Of a stretch of 44,374 nt of DNA, positions 8,244 through 43,882 are shown piece by piece. The DNA comes from Candidatus Hermodarchaeota archaeon. GTDB taxonomy: Archaea; Asgardarchaeota; Lokiarchaeia; Sigyniarchaeales; SOKP01. Position numbers and translations under genes: made by a program. Numbering within the stretch: the first letter of the stretch is position 1; each line of letters starts with the position of its first letter. Below the pieces are notes generated by a model. That model had not been told where the DNA came from and ran no database searches. It saw only the letters and a list, made by a program, of their open reading frames with translations. Location: contig JBHLLG010000022.1 of assembly GCA_048885925.1 (NCBI GenBank), forward strand, positions 1-44,374, in the 5' to 3' direction.

Positions 8244-10067
8244 TTATTTTAATGTTAAAATCCTTAATTTTTGAATTATTTTATCTTTGATTAATTCAAT
8301 TTGTTGAAAATTGTCATTTTCGATAGAGCGACTAATATTTAAAATTTCATTATAAATATCTTGATCCAGTAAATCTTCAATTAAAATTCCTTGGTCTATA
8401 AGATTAATCCCTTCAATATAAATTAAAAGAATAATTTTAATCAAACCTAACATTTTTTTAACACCAGTGAAACTGTCAATGCTATCAAAAGCATTCTGAA
8501 TTAGAAAACCATTTTTAATTAATTTCGAAATGAAAATTACTAGTTGTTGGTCTTCTGGTAAGTTTTTTTCCCCAATTAGTTGAATAATGTATGTCAAATC
8601 TTGTTCTTTGGATAAAATTTCGTTTACTAGTTTTCGACACTCACTCCAATCAAACTCGATTTCTGACCAACTAATATCTTTTTGATTCCACCAATCTGAT
8701 ATCGAAGAAGGATAAGTTGAATAAGAATTCATCCAATTAATGGCAGGATAATGTTTTAAATATGCTAAACTGGAGTCCAAAGCCCAAAAAACTCTTACTA
8801 ATCTCTTTGTTGTTGCTGTTACTGGTTCACTAAAATCCCCCCCAGGTGGTGAAATTGTCCCAACAATTGTTAATGATCCTACTTTTTCTTTTCCTTGATA
8901 ATCTAACCCCATTGTTTTAACAACACCTGCTCTTTCATAAAAGCTTGACAATTTTGATGGTAAATAGGCAGGATATCCTTCTTCTGCAGGCATTTCTTCT
9001 AACAATCCGGAGATTTCCCTTAAAGATTCAGCCCATCTTGATGTACTATCTGCTAAAACAGCAACGTCATAACCCATATCTCGATAATATTCTGCGATGG
9101 TAACTCCAGAAAATAGACTAGCCTCTCTAGCAGAAACAGGCATATTAGAAGTATTAGCTATTAGAATTATATGCTCTATCAAGGGCCTTCCTGTTTTAGG
9201 ATTAGTTAATTCAGAAAATTGATTTAAAATGTTAGCGATTTCATTACCAGGTTCTCCACATCCTATAAATACAATAACATCAACATTGCTCCATTTAGCT
9301 AAAGATTGTTGTATAACTGTTTTTCCTGTTCCGAAACCTCCTGGTACTGCTACAGTACCACCCTTTGCTACTGGAAACAATAAATCTATAGCACGCATTC
9401 CAGTAATTAAAGGAATTGTGGCATTCTCTTTCTTTTTATAAGGACGATTTACTGTGATTGGCCATTTTTGCATCATCGAGAATGAAACTTCTTTTGAATT
9501 TATTTTTAATCTATATAACTCATCCAAAATTGTATAATCCCCTTCTTTTGTGATAAATGATAATCTTCCTGAGGTATATGGATGAATCATAATCTTATGT
9601 TCTAAAAATTGTGTTTCTTGAACAATTCCTATTACATCTCCACCATTAACTTTTTCATTTAGCTTTTTGAGTGGCTGAAAGTGCCATTTTTTTGTTCTAG
9701 ATAAAGGAGGGAATTTTATACCTCGATATAATCTTCCAGAGGTGAGATTCTCAAAAATTATTTCTAATGGCCTCTGCATTCCATCAAAAACATGGGATAT
9801 TAAACCAGGAGCTAATTCCATTGAAAGAGGTTCTTTTAAATTAATAACTTCTTCATTCAATTTTATATTTATAGTATTTTCGAAAGATTGTGCTATTATA
9901 TGATCTGAATATATTTGGATTACTTCTCCTAGTATTTCATGATCTGATATTTTTATTAGATCATGGAGGCGAACATGACCTTCTAATCCTTTAATTTCGA
10001 GAAGTGATCCATTAATTCCTGAAATATAACCATAAGGAATTTCTTCATCAAACTTTAGTGAATTCAT
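8244..10067 (-). CDS. atpA: A/V-type ATPase subunit A paralogue (A'), GER motif altered to GEP
   Basis: Full length and colinear with 15406..17250. GGFGTGKT, ANTSNMPV.AREAS, DSTSRWAE, PAEEGYPAYL present, but GCGEPGNE. Confidence 0.92.
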   Translation of the reverse strand: MNSLKFDEEIPYGYISGINGSLLEIKGLEGHVRLHDLIKISDHEILGEVIQIYSDHIIAQSFENTINIKLNEEVINLKEPLSMELAPGLISHVFDGMQRPLEIIFENLTSGRLYRGIKFPPLSRTKKWHFQPLKKLNEKVNGGDVIGIVQETQFLEHKIMIHPYTSGRLSFITKEGDYTILDELYRLKINSKEVSFSMMQKWPITVNRPYKKKENATIPLITGMRAIDLLFPVAKGGTVAVPGGFGTGKTVIQQSLAKWSNVDVIVFIGCGEPGNEIANILNQFSELTNPKTGRPLIEHIILIANTSNMPVSAREASLFSGVTIAEYYRDMGYDVAVLADSTSRWAESLREISGLLEEMPAEEGYPAYLPSKLSSFYERAGVVKTMGLDYQGKEKVGSLTIVGTISPPGGDFSEPVTATTKRLVRVFWALDSSLAYLKHYPAINWMNSYSTYPSSISDWWNQKDISWSEIEFDWSECRKLVNEILSKEQDLTYIIQLIGEKNLPEDQQLVIFISKLIKNGFLIQNAFDSIDSFTGVKKMLGLIKIILLIYIEGINLIDQGILIEDLLDQDIYNEILNISRSIENDNFQQIELIKDKIIQKLRILTLK

Positions 10068-10092: not shown

Positions 10093-10533
10093 TTAATATT
10101 TTAATTGTGCATTACAGAATGGACATTTTTTAACGAAGTTTGGTATAATATTTCCACAATTTTCACATTTATTAATTATTGGTCTGCGATATTTGAGATC
10201 GAGATTAATAGATTTTGGAATTTTCGGTTGGACTTCATGCATTTCTTCTTCCTCTTGAATAGCGATAACTTTCTTTTGATAATTTAGTGTGGCTTTTCTT
10301 TTTCTATTTGGAAACATCCTTGAATAAAGAGATTTTTTATTTTTCCTCAGAAAGGGACTAATAGAGATTAAAAATATGAAAATCAATAATATTATCGTGA
10401 TAAAAGGATGAGCGCCAAATTGAATGAAAAGAAAATAGAAATAAACCATTATACAAACATAACTTATTAATACTATTAATCGAAAAATTAACCGTTTGCG
10501 ACTGTTATCCTTTTCATTTATTTCATTTGACAT
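10093..10533 (-). CDS. Two-TM membrane protein with C-terminal zinc ribbon
   Basis: Two hydrophobic helices, basic linker, CENC-x10-CPFC. Confidence 0.75.
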   Translation of the reverse strand: MSNEINEKDNSRKRLIFRLIVLISYVCIMVYFYFLFIQFGAHPFITIILLIFIFLISISPFLRKNKKSLYSRMFPNRKRKATLNYQKKVIAIQEEEEMHEVQPKIPKSINLDLKYRRPIINKCENCGNIIPNFVKKCPFCNAQLKY

Positions 10534-11064: not shown

Positions 11065-13356
11065 TTATTCGAATCTTTTTGTTATATAGTTCTTAGCCTT
11101 ATCTATTTGTTCTTTTATTATTCTTGTTTCAAATTCTTTTTCGATTTCCTCTGAAATAATGTCTTTTTCAATCGCACCTCTAAAATTAATAGACGAATAA
11201 TTATTATCCAGAAAAAAGGGAAAATAATCTTGGCCAGATCCTTGATAAAACTTGAAGAAAAATTCATAAAAATGGAGACGTAGAGAATTGAGAAATACTA
11301 GTAATCCTTCTAAGAGAATTACAATTAAATTCCCAAAAATCGAACCAATAAAAGATATTATCTCTACTCCAAAACCTTCTCCTTGGATCAATGAAGACAT
11401 GGCATTTATAGAGTATAACAATGCAATATGAGCTAATGCCAAGGCTAATAATCGAATGTAAGATGCAACATTGCTCATAACTGATAAAACTGTATCAAAT
11501 GCTTCAATCGATCCTTCACCTAATAATCCACCAATAGTTTCTTTTCTTAAGTATGAAATTTTTAGTGTTTTTCCAAGAGGTTTCAAAAACAATAATAGAA
11601 GCCCTGGGATCAGAACTAATAAGATTGGATATGGAAATGCCATCCAAGTATATATATCAAACCCATAACCAAATATCAAAATAGTTCCGCCTATTAATAA
11701 TAAAATTTTCATAAATGAATCGCTAAATGCTAAATATTTCCTATGTTGTTTCCAATAATTTAAAAATTGTATGAACCAACCTAAATTTATATGAAAAACT
11801 CCAATTAATACGGCAAAATAAAATACAGAAAGGATATTACCTAATGGATTATATAGTGTAATATTGAAAAGAGGGATTGTTACTGGTTCCAAATGGAAAT
11901 AGACTGTTCCAAATATCTCGATTTCATGCTTTCCAAAAAATTCCCCATATAAGAAACCAACAAGTACAGAGGCCCATCCACAAAGAAAGATGATCCAACT
12001 TAGATTTACAACATTTTTACTACGCTTTCTTAATACAATAGCTCCTATCAATCCCGCTAGAATTAAAACTAATCCATGACCTATATCACCAAACATTAAA
12101 CCAAAAAGTAATGGAAATGTGATTGCGATAATAGGAGTAGGATCTATTTCAGAATATGTAGGTGTCCCGTACATTCTTGTGATAGTTTCGAATGGTCTTA
12201 CAAGAAAGAAATTTTTCATGATCGTGGGAGTTTTTTCTCTTAGATCTTCTTTTTCTGTATCGGATTCATTTGATTCAACTTCTTCAATGCTAAGCTCTTT
12301 TAAGGGTTTGACACTTTTTTTTATTATTTTTCCTTTTTCCGATAAAGATGATTCATAACTGGGTCGATTTTTTGACACATCTTGTGTCTCAATTGTTATA
12401 TTTTCTTTAAAGATTTTAAATAAATTCTGTTTAACTTCTTCCTTTTTAGATAAAGGAACAAAAAATTTAAGTAATAATCGATTTAAAGGTAGCCGTTCAA
12501 ATTGTTGTTCAACCCAATTATATTCCTCAATATTTTGAACAATTTCATTAATACCAGCAAATTTTAAGAGATTTTCTTTAGCAATTCGATTTTGTTCTTT
12601 CTTATATCTTGATATTAAATCTTCAATAAATTTAATTTCCTTATCTATTCTTAAAAGATTGATTCCTTCACTTGTCAAATATTTTTTTAAAATTGGAACT
12701 TCTTCAGAATGTAATAAACGAATTCTTCCGTTGAATTCATCCTGCTTATCTTTGGGATAGAATATATAAAAACCTATTCTGTCATCAGATATTTCAAATG
12801 TATCATAAAAATTTGGGAATTCTGAAAATTCAAAAAGATTTTGTAAATTAGGTAAATTCTTAGAAAATGTAGTAAAAACTCGCAAATTAAAGTTTCTCAG
12901 TTTTTCTAAATTTTCTGTATTTAATTCTATTTTTTTTAAAATTTTATAACTTTCTTTTATAATCTTAAGATTTTCTAACTCAATTTTGCCTTTTGATATA
13001 TATTTATTTAATTCTATTGCTCTATTTATATAGAAATCTACTTCTTCGAGAAGATTGTTTATTAATTCATATAAATCTTTAGCTATGAATTCAATTCTTT
13101 CATTCTTATCAATTTTTAAATTTCGAACGTCGTATTCACTAATTTCAAGTCTTTTAAATAAGTTATTTAAATTTTTCCTCAAATCTTTAATTTTTTGTCT
13201 AAACGGGTCTTTTTCGTCTAATTCTTTATCGTATTTAGGCTTTTTCTTCGATTTTATATGAACTATATTCATATTTGATAATTCTATTAGAAACTGATCT
13301 CTATAGCTCTGACTTATTTCTGCTTTCATCAAACAAAACTCGTCTTTTTTTGTCAT
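11065..13356 (-). CDS. atpI: A/V-type ATPase subunit I (a)
   Basis: TPT..N..PFE.IT.MYG.P.Y.EIDPT, FGLMFGDIGHG, SYIRLLAL.LAH (essential Arg), LRLHFYEFF.KFY. Confidence 0.95.
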   Translation of the reverse strand: MTKKDEFCLMKAEISQSYRDQFLIELSNMNIVHIKSKKKPKYDKELDEKDPFRQKIKDLRKNLNNLFKRLEISEYDVRNLKIDKNERIEFIAKDLYELINNLLEEVDFYINRAIELNKYISKGKIELENLKIIKESYKILKKIELNTENLEKLRNFNLRVFTTFSKNLPNLQNLFEFSEFPNFYDTFEISDDRIGFYIFYPKDKQDEFNGRIRLLHSEEVPILKKYLTSEGINLLRIDKEIKFIEDLISRYKKEQNRIAKENLLKFAGINEIVQNIEEYNWVEQQFERLPLNRLLLKFFVPLSKKEEVKQNLFKIFKENITIETQDVSKNRPSYESSLSEKGKIIKKSVKPLKELSIEEVESNESDTEKEDLREKTPTIMKNFFLVRPFETITRMYGTPTYSEIDPTPIIAITFPLLFGLMFGDIGHGLVLILAGLIGAIVLRKRSKNVVNLSWIIFLCGWASVLVGFLYGEFFGKHEIEIFGTVYFHLEPVTIPLFNITLYNPLGNILSVFYFAVLIGVFHINLGWFIQFLNYWKQHRKYLAFSDSFMKILLLIGGTILIFGYGFDIYTWMAFPYPILLVLIPGLLLLFLKPLGKTLKISYLRKETIGGLLGEGSIEAFDTVLSVMSNVASYIRLLALALAHIALLYSINAMSSLIQGEGFGVEIISFIGSIFGNLIVILLEGLLVFLNSLRLHFYEFFFKFYQGSGQDYFPFFLDNNYSSINFRGAIEKDIISEEIEKEFETRIIKEQIDKAKNYITKRFE

Positions 13357-13378: not shown

Positions 13379-14014
13379 TTATTTTTTAATAATTATATCT
13401 TTGGTTTTTTTCAATCTAATGTAATTTTCCCTTTCAATTTCTTCCAAAATCTCTTTAATTTTTTTAATATTTAACTTTAACTTGGGAATTATTAAATTTT
13501 TTAAACCATTTATCCTACGATTGATCTTTTTAAAATTTATTGCATGTTTTAATAATAAATCTTCTATTTCAGAAAATTGGATTAAAGAATTAAAAAAATC
13601 CTTTAAAGTATAAATTAAATCATCCAGATAATGACTTGTGTTCTCAAACGTATACGCAGGAAGCTTCTCTTCTTGAATTAATTCGTATTTAATCTGAGGA
13701 AATAAAATACCTGCCTTTTTTAGATGAAAAATTTCAATTTTAGGTTTGAATTGAATTCTACTTAATTTACTTACCAAAACGAGTTCATTCTTACCCATCT
13801 CTTCATAGGTTAAATGAAGAATTTTCATTGTCTCCTTGAATAAAGAAAGAAATTCTTTTCTTTTTGAAATAAAATCTTTCCATAATTTTCGAAGCTGAAA
13901 AATTAATTGCTCTCTTCTGAATTCTAGAAAGCTTTCTCCTTTAACTGCAAAAGCTAATCTTTTCTGCAAAGAAATTAAATTTGATTTTGATGGTTTTATC
14001 TCTCTAAAACTTAT
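13379..14014 (-). CDS. atpD: A/V-type ATPase subunit D (probable ATA start at 14014; ORF track starts at TTG 13969)
   Basis: C-terminal RRINGL.N.IIP.L...I...LEE.ERE...RLKK. Upstream in-frame extension gives SFREIKPSKSNLISLQKRL, matching the conserved KPT..L..LK.RL N-terminus. Confidence 0.9.
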   Translation of the reverse strand: MSFREIKPSKSNLISLQKRLAFAVKGESFLEFRREQLIFQLRKLWKDFISKRKEFLSLFKETMKILHLTYEEMGKNELVLVSKLSRIQFKPKIEIFHLKKAGILFPQIKYELIQEEKLPAYTFENTSHYLDDLIYTLKDFFNSLIQFSEIEDLLLKHAINFKKINRRINGLKNLIIPKLKLNIKKIKEILEEIERENYIRLKKTKDIIIKK

Positions 14015-14017
14015 AAT

Positions 14018-15409
14018 CTACACCTTTACTTGAAAGTATTTGTCAATATACTTCTGATGAATTCTGATTAATTGGTTTTGATTTAAATTAGATAATAATT
14101 CCCAGGCGATATCAAGAGATTCTTTAAAACTTCTATTCTCATCTTCTTTTTGGTTTAAGAATCTTTGTTCAAAACCATTTCCGAATTTTAATATATTCTT
14201 TTGTTCGAAATTCAGTCCATCTTCTCCTACAATTGAAATAAGATCTTTAACTTCAATGTACTCAGAATAGGAAGCCAGTAACTGTGAACTAATATCAGCA
14301 TGATCCTCTCTTGTTTTCCCTTTTCCAATTGCATCCTTCATTAACCTTGAAATCGAGGCTAAGGATTCAAAAGGGGGATAAATACCTTTCTTATGTACCA
14401 TACGACTAAGAACTAATTGTCCTTCTGTGATATACCCTGTAGTGTCAGGTACAGGATCAGTGATATCATCATTTTTCATTGTGAGTATCGGAATTTGGGT
14501 AATAGAGCCTTTTTTTCCTTTAATCTTTCCTGTCCTTTCATAAATTGATGCAAAATCTGAATAAATATAACCAGGATACCCCTTCCTACTTGGGATCTCT
14601 TCTTTCGCAGAACTCAGCTCCCTTAATGCTTCTGCATAATTTGTCATATCAATTAAAACAACAAGGACATGCATATCTTTTTCGAAAGCAAAGTATTCTG
14701 CTGTTGTTAAAGCCACTCGAGGAATTAATAGTCGTTCAATTATTGGATCATCAGCAAAATTGATAAAAGAAATGATATTTTGAAGTGTTCCACTTTCTTG
14801 AAACCGGTTTATAAAGTAAATTGCCTCATCTTGGATAATTCCAATACCACAAAAAATTATTATAAATGGTTCATCTGAAGCAACTTTTGCTTGGGTTGTT
14901 ATTTGAGCAGCTAATTTGTTATGGGGTAATCCCTGTGCACTGAAAATAGGAAGCTTTTGACCCCTGATTAATGTAAATAATCCATCAATTACAGATATAC
15001 CTGTTTGTATAACATCAATGGGATATTCTCTAGCAAAAGGATTGATAGGACTCCCATTTATATCTCTGTGAACATCCGTTAAAACATCTGAATCTAAAAC
15101 TGTTTTTGTTTTGATATCAAATGGAATTCCTAATGAATTGAATGTTTGACCGAACATATCATTTGAGATCTTTACTTTAAAAGTATCTTCAGTAAATTTT
15201 ATTTCAGCATTCTCAGAGGATATTCCCGTTGTATCCTCAAATACTTCAACAACAATTATGTCCTCACTTAGTTTTACAACTTGGCCAGTACGTAATTTAT
15301 TATCATTTGTTTTAATTCTTACTATTTCACCATATTGAGCATTATGCTCATTTTTAAGAAATAAGAGTGGTCCGATGATTTGTTGAATTTTTTTATATAT
15401 TACACTCAT
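14018..15409 (-). CDS. atpB: A/V-type ATPase subunit B
   Basis: GQKLPIFS..GLPHN.LAAQI, DMTNYAEALRE, KGYPGY.Y.D..SIYER.G, PD.TGYITEGQ, SRLMK. Confidence 0.96.
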   Translation of the reverse strand: MSVIYKKIQQIIGPLLFLKNEHNAQYGEIVRIKTNDNKLRTGQVVKLSEDIIVVEVFEDTTGISSENAEIKFTEDTFKVKISNDMFGQTFNSLGIPFDIKTKTVLDSDVLTDVHRDINGSPINPFAREYPIDVIQTGISVIDGLFTLIRGQKLPIFSAQGLPHNKLAAQITTQAKVASDEPFIIIFCGIGIIQDEAIYFINRFQESGTLQNIISFINFADDPIIERLLIPRVALTTAEYFAFEKDMHVLVVLIDMTNYAEALRELSSAKEEIPSRKGYPGYIYSDFASIYERTGKIKGKKGSITQIPILTMKNDDITDPVPDTTGYITEGQLVLSRMVHKKGIYPPFESLASISRLMKDAIGKGKTREDHADISSQLLASYSEYIEVKDLISIVGEDGLNFEQKNILKFGNGFEQRFLNQKEDENRSFKESLDIAWELLSNLNQNQLIRIHQKYIDKYFQVKV

Positions 15410-17250
15410 AATTTTTTAAATGTTTCATGGGTTAATTTTAAGGATGCAATTTCATTAAGTAATTTCTTTTTTAACCCTTCTATTCTATCAAAATCTTTAT
15501 TGGGAATAGTATGGTTAATTCTTAAAATATTAGTAATACTTCTAAGATTTTTAATATCTTCAATTAAAAATCCTTGTTTTAAAAGTTCATTACCTTCTTT
15601 ATATAAAAGAAGAATTATTTTAATCATTCCTAAAAGTTTTTTAAAATCTGTATAATTATCAATATCATCAAATGCATTTTGGATTAAAAATCCGTCTTTA
15701 ATTAATCTTGCAATAAATATTGTTAATTGTTGGTCTTCAGGTAGATTTTCCTCACCGATAAGTTGTGTAATGTACTTTAATTCATTTTCTTGGGATAATA
15801 TTTCATTAACTTGCATTCGGCATTCAAACCAATCAATATCTATTTCTGACCAATGAATGTCTCTTTTGAACCACCATTCTAATATATAATCCGGGTAATT
15901 GGAATATGAATTCAACCAATTAATAGCGGGATAATGTTTTGAATATGCCAATCCAGCGTCTAAAGCCCAAATTCCTTGAACGAAATTTTTAGTTGTTGCT
16001 GTTACAGGTTCACTAAAATCACCAGCAGGAGGAGAAACTGACCCTATTACTGTTAATGAACCAATTCTTTCTTTTCCAAATTCATCTTCTCCAAACAATT
16101 TAACAATACCTGCTCTTTCGTAAAAACTAGATAGCTTTGAAGGTAAATATGCAGGATATCCCTCTTCAGCGGGCATTTCTTCTAATAGTCCAGAAATTTC
16201 CCTTAAAGATTCTGCCCATCTTGAAGTACTATCCGCTAAGACAGCAACATCATAACCCATATCCCTGTAGTATTCGGCAATGGTTACTCCCGAAAAAATA
16301 CTAGCTTCTCTTGCGGAAACTGGCATGTTTGAAGTATTTGCGATTAGAATAATCCGATCTAACAAAGATTGACCTGTTTTAGGATCTATTAACTCTGAGA
16401 ATTGTTTCAAAACATCAGCTATTTCATTTCCTCGTTCTCCACAACCAACAAAAACAATTACATCAGCATTACACCATTTCGCCAAAGATTGCTGGATAAC
16501 AGTTTTTCCTGTTCCAAATCCTCCCGGAACTCCAATTGTACCTCCTTTAGTAATAGGAAATAGTAAATCTATAACTCGTATCCCTGTTATTAATGGTTCA
16601 TTGGGAATTTTTCTCTCCTTAAAAGGTCGTGCTTTAGTTATTGGCCATTTTTGTAACATTGAAAAGGAATTTTCTTTATTATCTCTTTTCAATTTATAGA
16701 TTGTGTCAATAATTGTATAATCTCCTTCATCCACAATGAAATTCAATGTTCCCGTAGTATTTGGAGGAACTAATATTTTATGTTTTATCGCAGGAGTTTC
16801 TTGAACAGTGCCAATTATATCTCCTCCATTTACTAAATCACTCTTTTTTTTTTCAGGAATGAAGTGCCATTTTTTTGTTCTTGATAAAGAATCTATTTCT
16901 AAACCTCTTTCTAATCCTCCAGTTTTGAAAAGATCAAAAGCTTTTTGTAAAGGTCTTTGAATTCCATCAAAAATGTTTCCTAATAATCCCGGTGCTAATT
17001 CCATAGAGAGAGGTTCATTTAAGCTAATAACTTCTTCGTTAATACGTAAATTGTCAGTATTTTCAAAACATTGAACAACCACATAATCCTCATAAATTTG
17101 AATAACTTCTCCTAAAATCTTATATTTAGTAATTTTAATTAAATCATGGAGTTTAATTGTTTCTTCAAGTCCTTTAACATTAATTAAAGACCCGTTTATA
17201 GCTGAAATGTAACCATATTGGGAAATGGTCTTAGAACTGGATTTGCTCAT
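15406..17250 (-). CDS. atpA: A/V-type ATPase catalytic subunit A
   Basis: GGFGTGKT, intact GCGERGNE, DSTSRWAE, PAEEGYPAYL, GDFSEPVT; ATGA overlap with subunit B. Confidence 0.97.
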   Translation of the reverse strand: MSKSSSKTISQYGYISAINGSLINVKGLEETIKLHDLIKITKYKILGEVIQIYEDYVVVQCFENTDNLRINEEVISLNEPLSMELAPGLLGNIFDGIQRPLQKAFDLFKTGGLERGLEIDSLSRTKKWHFIPEKKKSDLVNGGDIIGTVQETPAIKHKILVPPNTTGTLNFIVDEGDYTIIDTIYKLKRDNKENSFSMLQKWPITKARPFKERKIPNEPLITGIRVIDLLFPITKGGTIGVPGGFGTGKTVIQQSLAKWCNADVIVFVGCGERGNEIADVLKQFSELIDPKTGQSLLDRIILIANTSNMPVSAREASIFSGVTIAEYYRDMGYDVAVLADSTSRWAESLREISGLLEEMPAEEGYPAYLPSKLSSFYERAGIVKLFGEDEFGKERIGSLTVIGSVSPPAGDFSEPVTATTKNFVQGIWALDAGLAYSKHYPAINWLNSYSNYPDYILEWWFKRDIHWSEIDIDWFECRMQVNEILSQENELKYITQLIGEENLPEDQQLTIFIARLIKDGFLIQNAFDDIDNYTDFKKLLGMIKIILLLYKEGNELLKQGFLIEDIKNLRSITNILRINHTIPNKDFDRIEGLKKKLLNEIASLKLTHETFKKL

Positions 17251-17959
17251 ATAATCTTAAATATTCTGGTATTTTTTCTTTTTGATTTCGTATAAATTTT
17301 TCAAATTCTTTTTCTATTTCCTTAATTTCGGAATCGTTAATTATTTTAGAGATCTCCATCTCAATAAATGAAGATTTTTTATTAATTATATTATCTATTG
17401 TGTAATCATAAAAGATAATTCCTTCTACAAGTGAAATCTTAAAACCTCCTATAAATTCAGACTTAGTTTGATTTATTTCAACTGGATTCTTAAAAATTCC
17501 TGCTATTTGGTCAAAATTTTCAATAAAGTAATTATAATCCTTAGAATTTAATATTAATTCAATTCCTTGAGGTTTATCTATATCTTTTTTGACTTTTTTA
17601 ATTGATTCCAATAGAAAAGTAATATAACCTGAATAATTTTTTTCAATTTTCTCTCTAATTAGATTAACTATACTGGTTTTTAACTCCTTTATTAAATTAT
17701 TTTTTAACTTTAAAAATCTTTCTTTCTCCTTTAAAAGGGTTGATGATAATGATTGATTTAAATATTGGACATAACTTTCAATAAGATGATTTTTTAATTT
17801 TACCGATCTTTCACGGCTTCGTTCTAAATATCTATTCTTAATTTCAGCTTTCTGAAATAAGGTTTTTTGATTCAATTCTTTGACTTCTTTTTCAGCTTTC
17901 TCTATTAAGTAAAGTCCTAAATTACTGATTTTTTTTTTAATCTCTTTTTCTTCGGATAT
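17231..17959 (-). CDS. atpE: A/V-type ATPase subunit E (probable ATA start at 17959; ORF track starts at TTG 17875)
   Basis: Long N-terminal helix, C-terminal L..KD...IGGF.I....I.YD.TI domain, position between F and A. GAGGTGA SD 6 nt before ATA TCC GAA GAA. Confidence 0.82.
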   Translation of the reverse strand: MSEEKEIKKKISNLGLYLIEKAEKEVKELNQKTLFQKAEIKNRYLERSRERSVKLKNHLIESYVQYLNQSLSSTLLKEKERFLKLKNNLIKELKTSIVNLIREKIEKNYSGYITFLLESIKKVKKDIDKPQGIELILNSKDYNYFIENFDQIAGIFKNPVEINQTKSEFIGGFKISLVEGIIFYDYTIDNIINKKSSFIEMEISKIINDSEIKEIEKEFEKFIRNQKEKIPEYLRLYEQIQF

Positions 17960-17973
17960 TTTGATTCACCTCA

Positions 17974-18297
17974 TTAAATTACGATTATACCACCTATTGC
18001 ATCAATGATTTTATTTAAAATGATATCATAATTCTCTATATTTGGTTGAGAAATGTCTGGTAAAATAAAAACAAATGGAATTCTAACATTTTGTTTAAAA
18101 TCCAATAAAAAGTCAATCATCCCATTTGATAAACGTAAAGCTACAATTATCATGCCAATTGAAAAATCATTTTTTAACTCCGTAAACTTTTTTAGGAATT
18201 CTTCTTCATTTCTTACTATAGAACTTTCTAATCCTAAAAGTCCTAACATGGATACAATTTCTTCTTCGCCTAAAATGTGAATTTTTTGATCTACCAT
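17974..18297 (-). CDS. atpF: A/V-type ATPase subunit F
   Basis: KIHILGEEEIVSMLGLLG N-terminus, P.V..LP, C-terminal I..AIG; 107 aa; operon position. Confidence 0.85.
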   Translation of the reverse strand: MVDQKIHILGEEEIVSMLGLLGLESSIVRNEEEFLKKFTELKNDFSIGMIIVALRLSNGMIDFLLDFKQNVRIPFVFILPDISQPNIENYDIILNKIIDAIGGIIVI

Positions 18298-18608
18298 TAA
18301 AAATCAATTCCTAACTCTTTAATAATTACTTTTTGTAATTTTGGTATATTTTTTTTAAATCCAACTTCAATATTTTTAAGACTTTTATCTAAATTTTTTT
18401 CAAAAGTATTAGTTTGAGTGTCAATAGCTACTGCTAAATTACCCAAAGCAGTATTCACGAGAACATTTATTGTAGTAACAAAATTTTCAAATTTAGTGTC
18501 TTGCTCTTGTCGAAAGTCTTCAATTTCTTTCAAATTTACATTCTTAGAATTTTCTATTAATTCGTCATATACTTTTTGAATTTCATCTATCCATTCGAAT
18601 ATATCCAT
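18297..18608 (-). CDS. Probable A/V-type ATPase peripheral-stalk subunit H/G
   Basis: 103-aa all-helical charged protein inside the operon (TAATG coupling to F); the only otherwise missing subunit. Assigned by size and context. Confidence 0.6.
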   Translation of the reverse strand: MDIFEWIDEIQKVYDELIENSKNVNLKEIEDFRQEQDTKFENFVTTINVLVNTALGNLAVAIDTQTNTFEKNLDKSLKNIEVGFKKNIPKLQKVIIKELGIDF

Positions 18609-18654
18609 TTTTTAACCAAGTTGTGATTAATTTTCATTTATTCCAACAATCTCT

Positions 18655-19707
18655 TTATTTCAATCTTTTATATTTCTCATCAAGAATCTCAACTACTTTT
18701 GGTAAAATATATAAATGTATTTCTTTATCTTTCTTGATTAATACTTCAAGAATCTTAAAAATTGCTTGATAATCAACATCTTCAATTTTAATCTCTAATT
18801 TTTTGAAAAAGTATTCTAAATATAATTTCTCAATTGACCATATCAAATGGTTTTTATCAAGGTTATATTTTGATAAAATTAATTTAATTTCTTTCGTTTT
18901 AATTAAATATTGATTAATATTTAAAATAAAATCATTACTATTTGTAAGATCCAATAATTTTAAGATATCTTTTTTATCGAAAAATAAATAAGTGTCTATT
19001 AAAAACTGTGATAATAATTTTCTATCAATATTATTTTTGATTCCCCTATAAATCATATTTAAATTGTAGATTTCTGATATATATTTCAAATAAGGTGTAA
19101 TTATATTTCTTTCCTTTAAACCTAATTTTGAAATTTCATTTTTTAAATTTTCATAATAAAATTGATCAAGAAAAGCCTCAAGTACGAAGATTTCGTTGGT
19201 GTTTTTAAAATATAAAATACCTTCTCTTATTACTCTGTTATATTTTGTTGCTTTCATATGGAATTGTATTTCTTCTAAAGAAGATGTTTCAATCAATTCA
19301 TTTATGAATTCAGTATTGTTCAAATATTCTTCTACTAATTTATTAACTAATAATGATTTATCTGCAATGCTCATCCCTAGTATAGTGCCCAGAATAATAC
19401 GTTTAATATTCATTATTTCATACTTTATCAAATAATTTTTCAAAAAAATACGCATATTTGTTGGAGAAATATATAAAATCTTTCCAATCAACTTAATATA
19501 AGTATGAAATAACTCTCTTTCAATTTCCTCTATAGTATAAGAAGTAAGACTAAGTCCTGGATAATATTTACTAATAAATTCAATAAATTGTTTTATTTCA
19601 TTTATTTCTTCTAATTTTTTTAACGTAATCTCATCCATTATTAATTGTTTTAAAAAACCAATCCGGATAAGGGTAAAAGCATAATTATCAACAATCACGC
19701 TGCTCGT
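18655..19707 (-). CDS. atpC: A/V-type ATPase subunit C (d) (possible ACG start at 19707; ORF track GTG 19698)
   Basis: YA...RI..LK..., YEI.NIK.II, LE..LD..YY, EI.NL...YRG motifs; about 350 aa. Confidence 0.88.
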   Translation of the reverse strand, partial: TSSVIVDNYAFTLIRIGFLKQLIMDEITLKKLEEINEIKQFIEFISKYYPGLSLTSYTIEEIERELFHTYIKLIGKILYISPTNMRIFLKNYLIKYEIMNIKRIILGTILGMSIADKSLLVNKLVEEYLNNTEFINELIETSSLEEIQFHMKATKYNRVIREGILYFKNTNEIFVLEAFLDQFYYENLKNEISKLGLKERNIITPYLKYISEIYNLNMIYRGIKNNIDRKLLSQFLIDTYLFFDKKDILKLLDLTNSNDFILNINQYLIKTKEIKLILSKYNLDKNHLIWSIEKLYLEYFFKKLEIKIEDVDYQAIFKILEVLIKKDKEIHLYILPKVVEILDEKYKRLK

Positions 19708-19762
19708 TACATATTCACCAATAAATCAACTTTAGATTTGGATAAATAATTAAAAAGTTTTC

Positions 19763-20128
19763 TTAAACTGGGGTTGGTATTTTAGTCCAAAGTAAGATTG
19801 CAATGATCAATCCGTAAACTGCTAATGCTTCACATAGTGCAACAACGAGAAATGCTTTAAAGAATGCCTCTTCACGTTCTGAGAGTGCACTTATTGCAGC
19901 TGTTCCAACAGTTTTTATAGCCCAAGCACTTCCTAAAACCGACGCACTGACGGAAATTGCTACTCCAAAAGCTAAAGCTATAGTAGTAGGGGAGTTATAA
20001 TAATCAAATGTTGAAGGAACTTGAGCAGCTACGAAAGAAATAATTCCATTAGATGTAAAAATCACTAAAATTATCAAGAAAACTTGAAATGATACGAGTA
20101 AAAAATAAAATTTTTGTTTACCGTTCAT
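19763..20128 (-). CDS. atpK: A/V-type ATPase proteolipid subunit K (c), single hairpin with extra N-terminal hydrophobic segment
   Basis: GSAWAI..VG.AAI.A..E hairpin and ALCEALAVYGLIIAILL with the ion-binding Glu. Confidence 0.92.
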   Translation of the reverse strand: MNGKQKFYFLLVSFQVFLIILVIFTSNGIISFVAAQVPSTFDYYNSPTTIALAFGVAISVSASVLGSAWAIKTVGTAAISALSEREEAFFKAFLVVALCEALAVYGLIIAILLWTKIPTPV

Positions 20129-30941: not shown

Positions 30942-31514
30942 TTAGGTACCAAAAAAGTCAGATGGCTTTAAAAGGTGCTGATCCTCTTCTTTTTGCTTCT
31001 TGGCTTTTTCATGGGGATCTACCCATTCAGGTTCGCCTGTTGAAGCTTTTGCTGTTGTAGCTCCAGGGACTTTTAAAATAGGTGGATTCAAACTAATTCC
31101 AGCTGAAATAGGTTCTGGTTGTTGACCTGCCGCAACTGATTGAGGTTGACCAAATATTATACCTCCGGCTTTTAAAACTTTCAATTCGCTTAGGATTTTT
31201 TCTAAATTCATCGTTTGCACACTTTTATTCATTGTATCCATAATTTCTTTTAAAGAGGTTGAGGTTTCTCTTAATCCTTTAGGATTAATTCCTGTAAGCA
31301 GGGAATCTAAGTTAGCAGTAATACTTTCATTTAGATTCTTTAGTGTTTCGAGTACAGTTGCCCAATGTTTATTCATTTGAGATTCAATGGCACTAATCAT
31401 TTTTACAACCTCATTCATGAATGTTACATGTGAATTATATCTTTCCTCATCCTTTGACCTTAAATCGGAAATTAGCATAATAAGCTTCTTTAAGGCTTCT
31501 TTTTCTTCACTCAT
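30942..31514 (-). CDS. Hypothetical protein (helical N-terminus, Pro/Ala-rich tail)
   Basis: Intact 190-aa ORF with AGAGGA SD; no recognised motif. Confidence 0.65.
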   Translation of the reverse strand: MSEEKEALKKLIMLISDLRSKDEERYNSHVTFMNEVVKMISAIESQMNKHWATVLETLKNLNESITANLDSLLTGINPKGLRETSTSLKEIMDTMNKSVQTMNLEKILSELKVLKAGGIIFGQPQSVAAGQQPEPISAGISLNPPILKVPGATTAKASTGEPEWVDPHEKAKKQKEEDQHLLKPSDFFGT

Positions 31515-42613: not shown

Positions 42614-43882
42614 ATGAGTGAACTTTTAATGAAGTATAAATGGATAGGACCGGCTATTGAAAAAATGGATCGCGACATTAAAAGGATCTTTCTGAAAAAT
42701 TTCCGAATGCGCGATAAGAAATATTTCCCAGAAGGGGATTATAAAGCTGATATAAAGAACTTAGTGAACTGTATGCTTTGTCCAAATGTGTGTAAATTTG
42801 ATTGTGGGACACTACAAAGTTCTTTAACCGAAACAATGAGCCCTGCTTATAAGGCTCGAATTGGTTATTATTTAACAACAGGAAAAATAGATCCAACGAA
42901 AGGTGAAAATAAAGATTTTATTGACCTCATGTATAAATGTTCTAATGAGGAAAATTGTAAAATTTGGTGCCCTTTTGAATTTTCTGTTGTATCACTTTTA
43001 GAAACTGTGAGAGAGGATTTAAATGATAAAGGGATGATGCCAGATTACTGCAAACAACAGATAAGTAAGTTAAAAAAAACTAATACTATAGAAGATTACA
43101 ATATATTCGAAACTTATAAAGAGAAAGGAATAGAAAATATAGAAACTGATGGTAATGATGAAGTTTTCTACTATATAGGTTGCGAATCAATGAAATTCCC
43201 TGAAGTAATAAAAGCAAATATAGAAATATTAAAAAAAGCAGGAATTAAGTTTTCGACCAATCTTGATAAAAAAGTATGTTGTGGAGGTCCTGCATTTAAT
43301 ATAAGGGAAATGGAAACTGCGAAACAGTTTGCCGGGAAAAATAAAGAACTCATTGAAAATACAGGCGCAAAAATTATCATTTCAGACTGTCCTGGGTGTA
43401 TTTTGACTTTAACTAAAAGATATGAAAAAGCTGGGATTAAAATTGAAAAAGAAATAATCCATATAGTTCAATATTTTAGAAATTTAATTGATGACGGCAA
43501 ATTGAGATTTGAAAAAAGTATTCCAGAACAATTCAGAAAAATAACAATCCACGATCCTTGTCTCATTGCGAGAAATTTAAAAGACACTGAATCAATTAGG
43601 TATATTCTTAATAAAGTTCCAGATTTAATGATTATTGAACCTATTTATAATAAAGCTTATGTTCATTGTTGTGGTTGGAGTGGTACTGCCCATTGGGCAG
43701 ATAGAGACTTAGCTATTAGGGAAGCACGAAAAAGAATTAATGAATTAAAAGAAACTGGGGTAAATAATTTCATATCAGCTTGTCCTCTCTGTGAATTAGG
43801 TTTGGCATATGGAATTGAAGAATCTGAAAAAGAAAAATATAAAATACTAGATATATCTGAATTATTATTAAAATTACTTTAA
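42614..43882 (+). CDS. Fe-S oxidoreductase with two CCG domains (GlpC/HdrD/GlcF-like)
   Basis: N-terminal ferredoxin-like Cys motifs; GC..CCG..CPGC and HDPC..CCG..ACPLC; GAGGTGA SD 7 nt before ATG. Confidence 0.88.
   Translation: MSELLMKYKWIGPAIEKMDRDIKRIFLKNFRMRDKKYFPEGDYKADIKNLVNCMLCPNVCKFDCGTLQSSLTETMSPAYKARIGYYLTTGKIDPTKGENKDFIDLMYKCSNEENCKIWCPFEFSVVSLLETVREDLNDKGMMPDYCKQQISKLKKTNTIEDYNIFETYKEKGIENIETDGNDEVFYYIGCESMKFPEVIKANIEILKKAGIKFSTNLDKKVCCGGPAFNIREMETAKQFAGKNKELIENTGAKIIISDCPGCILTLTKRYEKAGIKIEKEIIHIVQYFRNLIDDGKLRFEKSIPEQFRKITIHDPCLIARNLKDTESIRYILNKVPDLMIIEPIYNKAYVHCCGWSGTAHWADRDLAIREARKRINELKETGVNNFISACPLCELGLAYGIEESEKEKYKILDISELLLKLL

Follow-up and report, generated by a model that had tools for sequence, protein, structure and literature searches.

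Shine-Dalgarno-supported near-cognate start codons in the rotary ATPase operon of a Lokiarchaeial archaeon, and their probable spread through its family

How does an archaeon initiate translation of rotary ATPase genes that carry no ATG at the place where their proteins appear to begin, and could such starts set the output of the subunits they encode? The question is raised by a 44,374-nucleotide (nt) stretch of DNA from a Candidatus Hermodarchaeota archaeon (the window), which is contig C22 of the metagenome-assembled genome (MAG) G000 (3.9 Mb, 29% guanine plus cytosine, GC) and bears on its minus strand a rotary ATPase operon with the gene order K, C, H-like, F, E, A, B, D, I. The original prediction on this DNA held that atpD and atpE start at ATA and atpC at ACG, each a few nucleotides behind a Shine-Dalgarno (SD) motif, and that these weak codons tune the output of low-copy subunits. 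Based on the comparison of these sites across related genomes, SD-supported near-cognate starts on all three genes are strongly supported as real: AUA is the predicted start of atpD and atpE, and ACG is most likely that of atpC. The best reading of the sequences is that near-cognate initiation, anchored by the SD motif, serves as a lineage-wide way of setting protein output.

The start sites of atpD, atpE and atpC

The three genes and the motifs ahead of atpC and atpE lie as follows in the window:
13379..14014, minus strand: atpD, 211 aa; predicted start ATA 14014-14012; Pfam ATP-synt_D and TIGR00309 over cut-off
17231..17959, minus strand: atpE, 242 aa; predicted start ATA 17959-17957; NCBIfam V-type subunit E at E=1.4e-5, below cut-off
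17966..17974, minus strand: mini-open reading frame (mini-ORF) ATG-AGG-TGA; overlaps the atpF stop (TAATG), holds the GAGGTGA SD (17966-17972) and has its TGA in the atpE frame
18655..19707, minus strand: atpC (A1 subunit C / V-type d); most likely start ACG 19707-19705; Pfam vATP-synt_AC39 and NCBIfam AhaC, E=6e-23
19715..19719, minus strand: GGTGA SD of atpC, assigned by sequence; complementary to GATCACCTCC, with which the 16S rRNA of a same-genus genome ends

The frame of atpD is open from 14017 to 13379, and its first canonical codon is TTG 13969, no ATG, GTG or TTG standing between the atpB stop and that codon, just as originally described. The B-D junction reads ...AAG GTG TAG ATT ATA AGT TTT AGA GAG ATA AAA CCA..., so that the SD motif AAGGTG (14021-14026) consists of the last atpB codons, AAG GTG, and the ATA lies 6 nt after GGTG and 3 nt past the atpB stop, with AGT following it. 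The Pfam ATP-synt_D match, which spans profile positions 1-195, begins 4 residues ahead of TTG 13969; in the TIGR00309 match, position 3 falls on residue 5 of the protein begun at ATA. The atpD protein was matched in 35 of 40 related genomes, and in all 20 genomes of the genus, the window's included, the start codon is ATA (10), ATT (6) or ATC (4) and never ATG. Across these genomes the N-terminus xISFREIKPTKTNL is kept with synonymous changes and the codon before the start is not conserved; (A/G)GGTG stands directly before the atpB stop in 17 of the 20 loci, the rest having CAGGTG, GGGTG or TAGGTG. At the aligned codon the sister families have ATG in six loci and TTG in two (8 resolved of 10 loci; MSF...), and five other genera of the family have ATT, ATA, ATC, ACG and, once, ATG (g12).

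The frame of atpE is open from 17965 and is bounded upstream by the TGA within GAGGTGA (17972-17966); its ATA follows that motif by 6 nt and the atpF stop by 14 nt, and the first canonical codon is TTG 17875, again in keeping with the original description. The weak NCBIfam match to subunit E places profile position 17 at residue 19 of the ATA-started protein. Among 16 genus loci the aligned codon is ATT in 11 and ATA in four, one locus being ambiguous (TTT, with ATA two codons upstream), and it is ATT in four of five other genera of the family (g13 ambiguous). The N-terminus ISEEKE... is conserved with synonymous changes, and sister families have ATG at this place (MSLREDFKD...). The mini-ORF at the atpF/atpE junction occurs in one form or another (ATG-AGN-TGA, ATG-TGA or ATG-TAG) in 10 of the 16 genus loci; its ATG is missing in at least three (L033, L036, L040) and out of the atpE frame in others. 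We propose that the ATG-AGG-TGA mini-ORF is most likely part of the ribosome-binding site and not the atpE start.

In atpC the ACG begins 7 nt after GGTGA (19719-19715), as had been reported, with an alternative GTG at 19698 nearby. Because this GTG lies only three codons downstream, atpC is the weakest of the three cases in this genome. Relatives carry GTT or ATC where the window has GTG 19698, and have GGTGA or GGTG 5-7 nt before the ACG. The codon is ACG in 14 and TTG in two of 16 genus loci, ACG in all of five other family genera, and ATG in all three sister-family loci; an in-frame stop directly precedes the ACG in two genus loci (L031, L046) and in G057. Altogether 19 of 21 family genomes retain the ACG, though in a genome of 29% GC a single C-to-T change would give ATG. 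The atpC leader of the window also contains an ATG-TAA start-stop (19707-19712, minus strand), 2 nt after GGTGA and overlapping the first base of the ACG, which is not seen in relatives.

Taken together, the alignment of orthologous loci, which the original prediction had named as a check, returns ATH (ATA, ATT or ATC) for D and E and ACG or TTG for C in the genus, one ambiguous E locus aside, with no ATG, and ATG or TTG at the same places in sister families. GGTG precedes the near-cognate codons of D, E and C by 6, 7 and 8 nt, and precedes the starts of ATG genes by 5-10 nt; the ATG genes of the window that had been offered for comparison are present as described (GAGGTGA-7 nt-ATG at 42614; AAGTGA-7 nt-ATG at 650 and 39193). 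The 16S rRNA of the same-genus genome G021 ends in GATCACCTCC, to which the SD is complementary and which therefore gives the SD as GGAGGTGATC; this anti-SD was read from G021 and from G031, of a sister family, because no 16S rRNA was found in the G000 assembly (motif search, Rfam SSU), nor in G006. Reads with ATG at these positions had been named at the outset as a refutation. Sequencing runs of four other studies gave contigs across the D, E and C start sites, and among the 40 differences listed (343 more exist) none falls at 14012-14014, 17957-17959 or 19705-19707. Runs of at least five studies contain this DNA, and among the runs listed for the locus none is of RNA.

The remaining genes of the operon, all with ATG, are:
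19763..20128, minus strand: atpK (proteolipid c/K), first operon gene; Pfam ATP-synt_C, E=6e-15
18297..18608, minus strand: H/G-like stalk gene for a 103-aa coiled-coil protein, assigned by operon position only
17974..18297, minus strand: atpF, its ATG overlapping the stop of the preceding gene; Pfam ATP-synt_F, E=7e-8
15406..17250, minus strand: atpA, assigned by sequence and orthologue alignment, not Pfam
14018..15409, minus strand: atpB, stop TAG 14020-14018; assigned by sequence and orthologue alignment, not Pfam
11065..13356, minus strand: atpI (a/I subunit); Pfam V_ATPase_I

The identity of the locus as an A1AO/V-type operon is borne out by Pfam matches above cut-off for K, C, F, D and I and for the second A copy. 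Among NCBIfam models D scores above the TIGR00309 cut-off, and C (AhaC) and E score below theirs; Pfam at E<=0.001 returned no family for E or the H-like gene, for whose 103-aa product the best profile hint is V-ATPase_G at E=0.057. In the genus, every alignment that extended to residue 1 shows ATG as the start of K, H, F, A, B and I, the sole exception being one atpK: ATG in 15 of 16 loci and TTG in one (G015), against ATG in 16 of 16 for the H-like gene. The earlier statement that the multi-copy subunits K, A and B use ATG accordingly holds across the genus but for that one atpK, and the caveat attached to it, that the single-copy F and I also use ATG, was confirmed in the resolved genus loci.

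Several further features of these loci were observed. In the window atpB and atpD share one frame with only TAG and one codon between them, which looks like a read-through fusion; B-D read-through as a general mechanism was rejected on finding the atpB stop in another frame than atpD in G001, G015, G005 and G022. Downstream of atpI lie a gene for a membrane protein of 146 aa that carries a zinc ribbon at its C-terminus (10093-10533, minus strand) and then a second full-length atpA paralogue (8244-10067, minus strand), which reads GCGEPGNE where the main copy has GCGERGNE (Arg to Pro). In the complete same-genus chromosome G006 (L038, G006:C1:2191500-2200900) A and B are present upstream of atpD, and no match for K, C, H, F or E was found in the 9.4 kb examined upstream of atpD there; the ATPase operon may be split in that genome.

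Near-cognate starts across the genome and the lineage

We surveyed ORFs of at least 120 codons for codons that stand ahead of the first canonical start and behind the SD motif. With GGTG 6-8 nt upstream, 68 of 4878 ATT, ATA, ATC, ACG and CTG codons were found, as against 99 of 26541 other sense codons (odds ratio 3.8, p=4e-15; 18 expected), and AAG and AGG showed no excess behind GGTG. At ORF heads lying 6 nt after GGTGA (n=69) the codons are ATG 14, ATT 14, ATA 11, TTG 7, AAA 6, ACG 2, GTG 2 and CAA 2, the rest occurring in smaller counts; scrambled control motifs gave few matches and no ATH excess. The genome-wide codon survey after GGTGA that had originally been suggested therefore turns up the ATH excess, with none behind the control motifs. 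At the scale of the window the pattern GGTGA-N6-ATH has two matches against 3.8 expected, a count that is uninformative; the near-cognate signal appears only where a long downstream ORF is required.

Taking the first GGTG-supported codon of each long ORF in G000 (n=3319), we obtained 76 canonical, 65 near-cognate and 84 other (background) codons, so that near-cognate starts make up about 2% of long ORFs (65/3319) and are nearly as many as AUG, GUG and UUG behind the same motif; among clear ATG starts only about 6% have GGTG 5-10 nt upstream. The codons of 57 near-cognate SD genes are ATT 31, ATA 19, ATC 4, ACG 2 and CTG 1. An upstream ORF ends within 40 nt of 11 of these 57 genes, as against 36 of 77 ATG SD genes, and operon-internal coupling was rejected as a general cause of near-cognate starts on these figures. 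The candidates include genes for uS10, uS8, eL21, TFB, MetRS, IMP dehydrogenase, small GTPases and response regulators, of which five may be placed as follows, each behind GGTG(A):
G000 C1, minus strand, offset 50747 on the reverse-complemented contig: uS10, candidate start ATA
G000 C8, plus strand, 64525: uS8, candidate start ACG
G000 C2, minus strand, offset 18288 on the reverse-complemented contig: eL21, candidate start ATT
G000 C79, plus strand, 3649: TFB, candidate start ATT
G000 C87, plus strand, 1864: MetRS, candidate start CTG

As the same weak starts are found on genes for ribosomal proteins, TFB, MetRS, GTPases and the initiation factor aIF1 (see below), they are better seen as a genome-wide habit of the lineage than as a device of the ATPase. 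Orthologues of the candidates were sought in 800 kb of G006 (same genus) and 800 kb of G031 (sister family), where many matches were paralogous or had unaligned N-termini. The clean pairs comprise six with the same codon class (in G006 uS10 ATA, TFB ATT, eL21 ATC and three others) and seven with ATG at the same place (uS8, c12 and c64 in G006; eL21, c16 and c37 in G031; c21 one codon off).

The ratio of canonical to near-cognate codons, 76:65 in G000, is 10:17 in the 800 kb of G006, 24:2 in the 800 kb of G031 (GC 30.8%) and 4:5 in 400 kb of G029, which belongs to another sister genus. Fisher tests separate the genus from G031 (p=3.5e-5) and G029 from G031 (p=0.006), the numbers being small and the kin not independent. 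In the same 800 kb of G031 (L103-L142) ATA occurs five times and ATT three times among 30 ORF heads lying 7 nt behind GAGG, and that lineage may have a lower-level near-cognate habit in another SD register. In light of these comparisons we consider it probable that SD-anchored near-cognate starts are real and are a habit of the whole Lokiarchaeial (Promethearchaeota) family. A literature search, with subscription journals mostly outside its reach, found no paper on near-cognate starts in Asgard archaea or Lokiarchaeota.

The start of aIF1 and a possible mechanism

We then considered aIF1, the start-codon proofreading factor. According to PMC4705826, aIF1 makes the Sulfolobus 30S complex reject AUU in vitro. 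In G000 the aIF1 (SUI1) gene lies outside the window, on the plus strand of contig C24 at about 8650-8950 (locus L153), and 34 of 40 relatives have PF01253 (SUI1/aIF1), among them 21 of the 23 other genomes of the genus; with the domain present and well conserved, loss of aIF1 was rejected as the cause of the weak starts. In all 21 readable genus genomes (the N-terminus being masked as N in G006) the aIF1 gene has no canonical start before the CPxC zinc knuckle. The leader GGTTGTGATAA-NAG-AGY-ATT-AAA-GAC is nearly invariant in the genus, its first ATT never varying and the next Ile codon doing so; in two genus genomes a stop stands one codon before the ATT, and the SD is imperfect and distant from it.

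The disfavoured start extends beyond the genus. In other genera of the family, ATT or ATC is found in 18 of 18 standard copies of g12, g14, g15 and g16 (g14 ATT in 12 of 12 standard copies and one paralogue, g12 ATT in three of three, g15 ATT, g16 ATC in two of two), and g13 offers ATA or, four codons upstream, GTG. Among sister families the codon is TTG (4), GTG (1-2) or ATG (2), with ATA in the genus of G029 and G033, from which the 400-kb sample with near-cognate starts also came. In more distant families of the phylum sample it is CTG in f6 (two of two), CTG in G091 and G147 and GTG in the others of f9, ATA in f11 and ATA in f17 (two of two), and in the remaining sampled families the loci that could be resolved, all but two (f8, f18), have ATG or GTG. 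Near-cognate aIF1 starts (ATA, CTG) thus recur in at least five other Asgard families sampled. The aIF1 gene of the genus starts at a site of the kind that the factor disfavours, and this is conserved in relatives, as for infC and eIF1: PMC4705826 and PMC6237735 describe the AUU start of infC as serving autocontrol and the poor context of eIF1 likewise. Because it is drawn from papers on infC and eIF1, a feedback on aIF1 is here a reading by analogy, and a literature search that left most subscription journals outside its reach found no paper on aIF1 autoregulation in archaea.

Based on these observations we propose that pairing of the SD would place the near-cognate codon in the P site, where the ordinary initiator Met-tRNA (anticodon CAU) would pair with two of the three codon bases, and that initiation, with Met as the first residue, would be less frequent than at AUG. 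The lineage would tolerate such weak starts through start-codon proofreading set low, and the invariant AUU start of aIF1 would make this factor limit its own synthesis, like bacterial IF3 (infC AUU) and eukaryotic eIF1. By this analogy aIF1 possibly limits its own synthesis via the AUU and so permits weak starts. The fuller proposition, that proofreading relaxed by a self-limiting aIF1 opens AUU, AUA, AUC, ACG and CUG behind a precisely spaced SD as a graded second class of start codons, which selection has used to set the output of about 2-3% of genes (those of three ATP synthase subunits, ribosomal proteins and TFB among them), we put forward only tentatively.

Competing explanations, known systems and significance

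Several observations weigh against the proposal of a lineage-wide, SD-anchored means of setting protein output, or against parts of it. The GTG three codons past the ACG of atpC fits the AhaC profile equally well, and the SD ahead of atpE is weaker in most relatives (GAGTTGA). About 18 of the 68 genome-wide candidates are expected as chance background, and the lineage contrast was drawn from one sister genome (800 kb) and 400 kb of another. Within the genus ATG and near-cognate codons interchange (uS8 ACG/ATG; c12 and c64 ATA/ATG), which bears on the choice between tuning and drift, and ribosomal proteins, needed in bulk, carry near-cognate starts too. The aIF1 feedback is argued by analogy, and aIF1 is present and well conserved.

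Among alternatives, the one that survives best is that the weak codons are an adaptation specific to the ATPase, selected on C, D and E since fewer copies of these are needed than of K, A and B. In A/V-ATPases C, D, F and I are single-copy, E and H two-copy, B three-copy and K multi-copy, textbook values that do not come from this organism. In favour of such selection, C follows many-copy K and D follows three-copy B. The pattern of starts is gene-specific and stable across six genera, the atpC ACG persists despite its one-step route to ATG, and three of nine operon genes are weak as against 65 of 3319 genome-wide (P=5.8e-4, a post hoc figure). In S. aureus reporters, as given in PMC13009471, AUA or AUU behind an extended SD yields about 10-30% of AUG output, a plausible order for ratios of 3:1 for B:D and about 10:1 for K:C. 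Against this, ATG is found in all resolved genus loci on one-copy F and I and on the H-like gene, the counterpart of two-copy H; two-copy E is weak though it stands behind single-copy F; atpD has reverted to ATG in genus g12; and the same device appears on uS10, uS8, eL21, TFB, MetRS, GTPases and aIF1, mostly at genes that are not operon-internal. Consequently, the original claim that weak codons tune low-copy subunits stands as regards the stable C/E/D pattern and falters on F, I and H with ATG and on the weak starts of ribosomal proteins. It is moderately likely that selection keeps the weak starts so that less of C, E and D is made than of the ATG-started neighbours K, F and B; the ATPase-specific form of the explanation we hold to be possible, with the balance somewhat against it.

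A different account is neutral decay, in which AT pressure and lax proofreading let ATG drift to ATA or ATT under a strong SD without regulatory meaning. It would fit the low GC of the genome, the predominance of ATH over ACG and CTG (54 vs 3 of 57), the interchange of codons between species for several genes and the free variation of atpD within ATH. However, G031 has few near-cognate codons (24:2) at nearly the same GC, the atpC ACG and the first ATT of aIF1 are (nearly) invariant while neighbouring Ile codons vary, and no genome of the genus has ATG at atpD though it is one mutation away. We regard neutral decay as a doubtful explanation.

It is very unlikely that D, E and C start at the next canonical codon (TTG 13969, TTG 17875, GTG 19698) with the upstream stretches as untranslated leaders. 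This is the output of standard gene callers, and for atpC the GTG is close by and agrees with the profile, but in 16-20 genomes the upstream stretches show synonymous changes and are conserved at the protein level. Further, the downstream codons are not conserved, the atpD TTG position being TTA, CTA or ATG in many genus relatives and GTG 19698 being replaced as noted above; no SD precedes them (GGTGA lies 16 nt ahead of GTG 19698); and starting there would cost the D and E profiles about 13 and 26 positions.

Another possibility is that the DNA letters mislead as to the mRNA or the code, through assembly error, editing to AUG (C-to-U at ACG), reassignment of ATH to Met or a second initiator tRNA. 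Plant organelles provide a precedent for C-to-U editing at ACG starts. In the present case more than 20 independent assemblies and the contigs of the four other studies carry the same letters, and a different edit would be required for each of ATA, ATT and ATC. Such codons inside A and B align to I, V or L in sister-family orthologues, 235 of 523 to Ile, and a single initiator tRNA-Met gene was found (A1:U72, three G:C pairs, anticodon CAT), in a MAG tRNA set that is incomplete (ARAGORN 13 without introns and 31 with introns, some doubtful; Rfam 23). An explanation of this kind is extremely unlikely. The initiator tRNA-Met gene (G000 C24, complement 31211-31314) has, according to ARAGORN, a 25-nt intron after position 40, which is not the canonical 37/38. 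The weakest alternative is recoding, in which read-through of the TAG would yield D as part of a B-D fusion and E would be made from ATG-AGG-TGA with the UGA read through, possibly as selenocysteine; the shared frames of B, TAG and D and of ATG-AGG-TGA and E in the window would allow it, but with the atpB stop out of the D frame in four genomes, the ATG before E absent or out of frame in others, and the D and E N-termini aligning with ATG-started proteins of sister families, it is barely credible.

The proposal of SD-anchored near-cognate initiation as a lineage-wide habit may be compared with known systems, first among them the weak starts of bacteria (infC with AUU in E. coli and AUA in S. 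aureus; ccpN with AUA in S. aureus and B. subtilis; cvfC1 with AUU and citZ with AUA in S. aureus). The likeness lies in AUU or AUA where relatives or mutants have AUG and in a conserved, strong and well-spaced SD, as described for the bacterial cases in PMC13009471, and in a fidelity factor whose own gene is on a near-cognate codon, as PMC4705826 gives for infC. Unlike the bacterial cases, the host is an archaeon with eukaryotic-type initiation machinery (aIF1, aIF1A, aIF2; no IF3), and ACG, CUG and core genes (ribosomal proteins, TFB) are included; in place of the handful known in bacteria, the candidates here, known from sequence, amount to about 2% of long ORFs and, among starts led by GGTG, to nearly half. 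With eIF1 (poor-context AUG) and infC (AUU) the archaeal system shares a disfavoured start (AUU, AUC, AUA or CUG) on the gene for aIF1, the eIF1 homologue, in several Asgard families; it differs from them in that feedback on the archaeal factor is a proposal by analogy and that the genome-wide link was drawn from three sampled lineages.

As in other ATP synthase operons (E. coli atp; archaeal operons with termination-reinitiation), adjacent cistrons on one mRNA encode subunits in unequal numbers. In known atp operons the ratios depend on SD strength, mRNA structure and coupling, and near-cognate starts are not known to set them. Here near-cognate codons are found on only three of the six low-copy subunits.

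One consequence is practical. Standard gene callers accept only ATG, GTG and TTG, so that in each genome of this family dozens of genes have their N-termini truncated or overlooked; in the window the predicted loss is 15 residues of atpD and 28 of atpE, and miscalled N-termini would also affect uS10, uS8, eL21, TFB, MetRS and aIF1. Such errors feed into structure predictions and into phylogenies of proteins used to place eukaryotes. For the ATPase the starts yield a falsifiable hypothesis, namely that the K:C and B:D ratios depend in part on the class of start codon. The weak aIF1 start alongside the near-cognate habit makes the origin of eIF1-type stringency control testable in Asgard archaea. 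If the proposal holds, near-cognate initiation would here, for the first time in an archaeal lineage, be a regular and conserved part of gene expression, and, should aIF1 act as proposed, non-AUG initiation controlled by eIF1 would have its archaeal counterpart among the closest relatives of eukaryotes.

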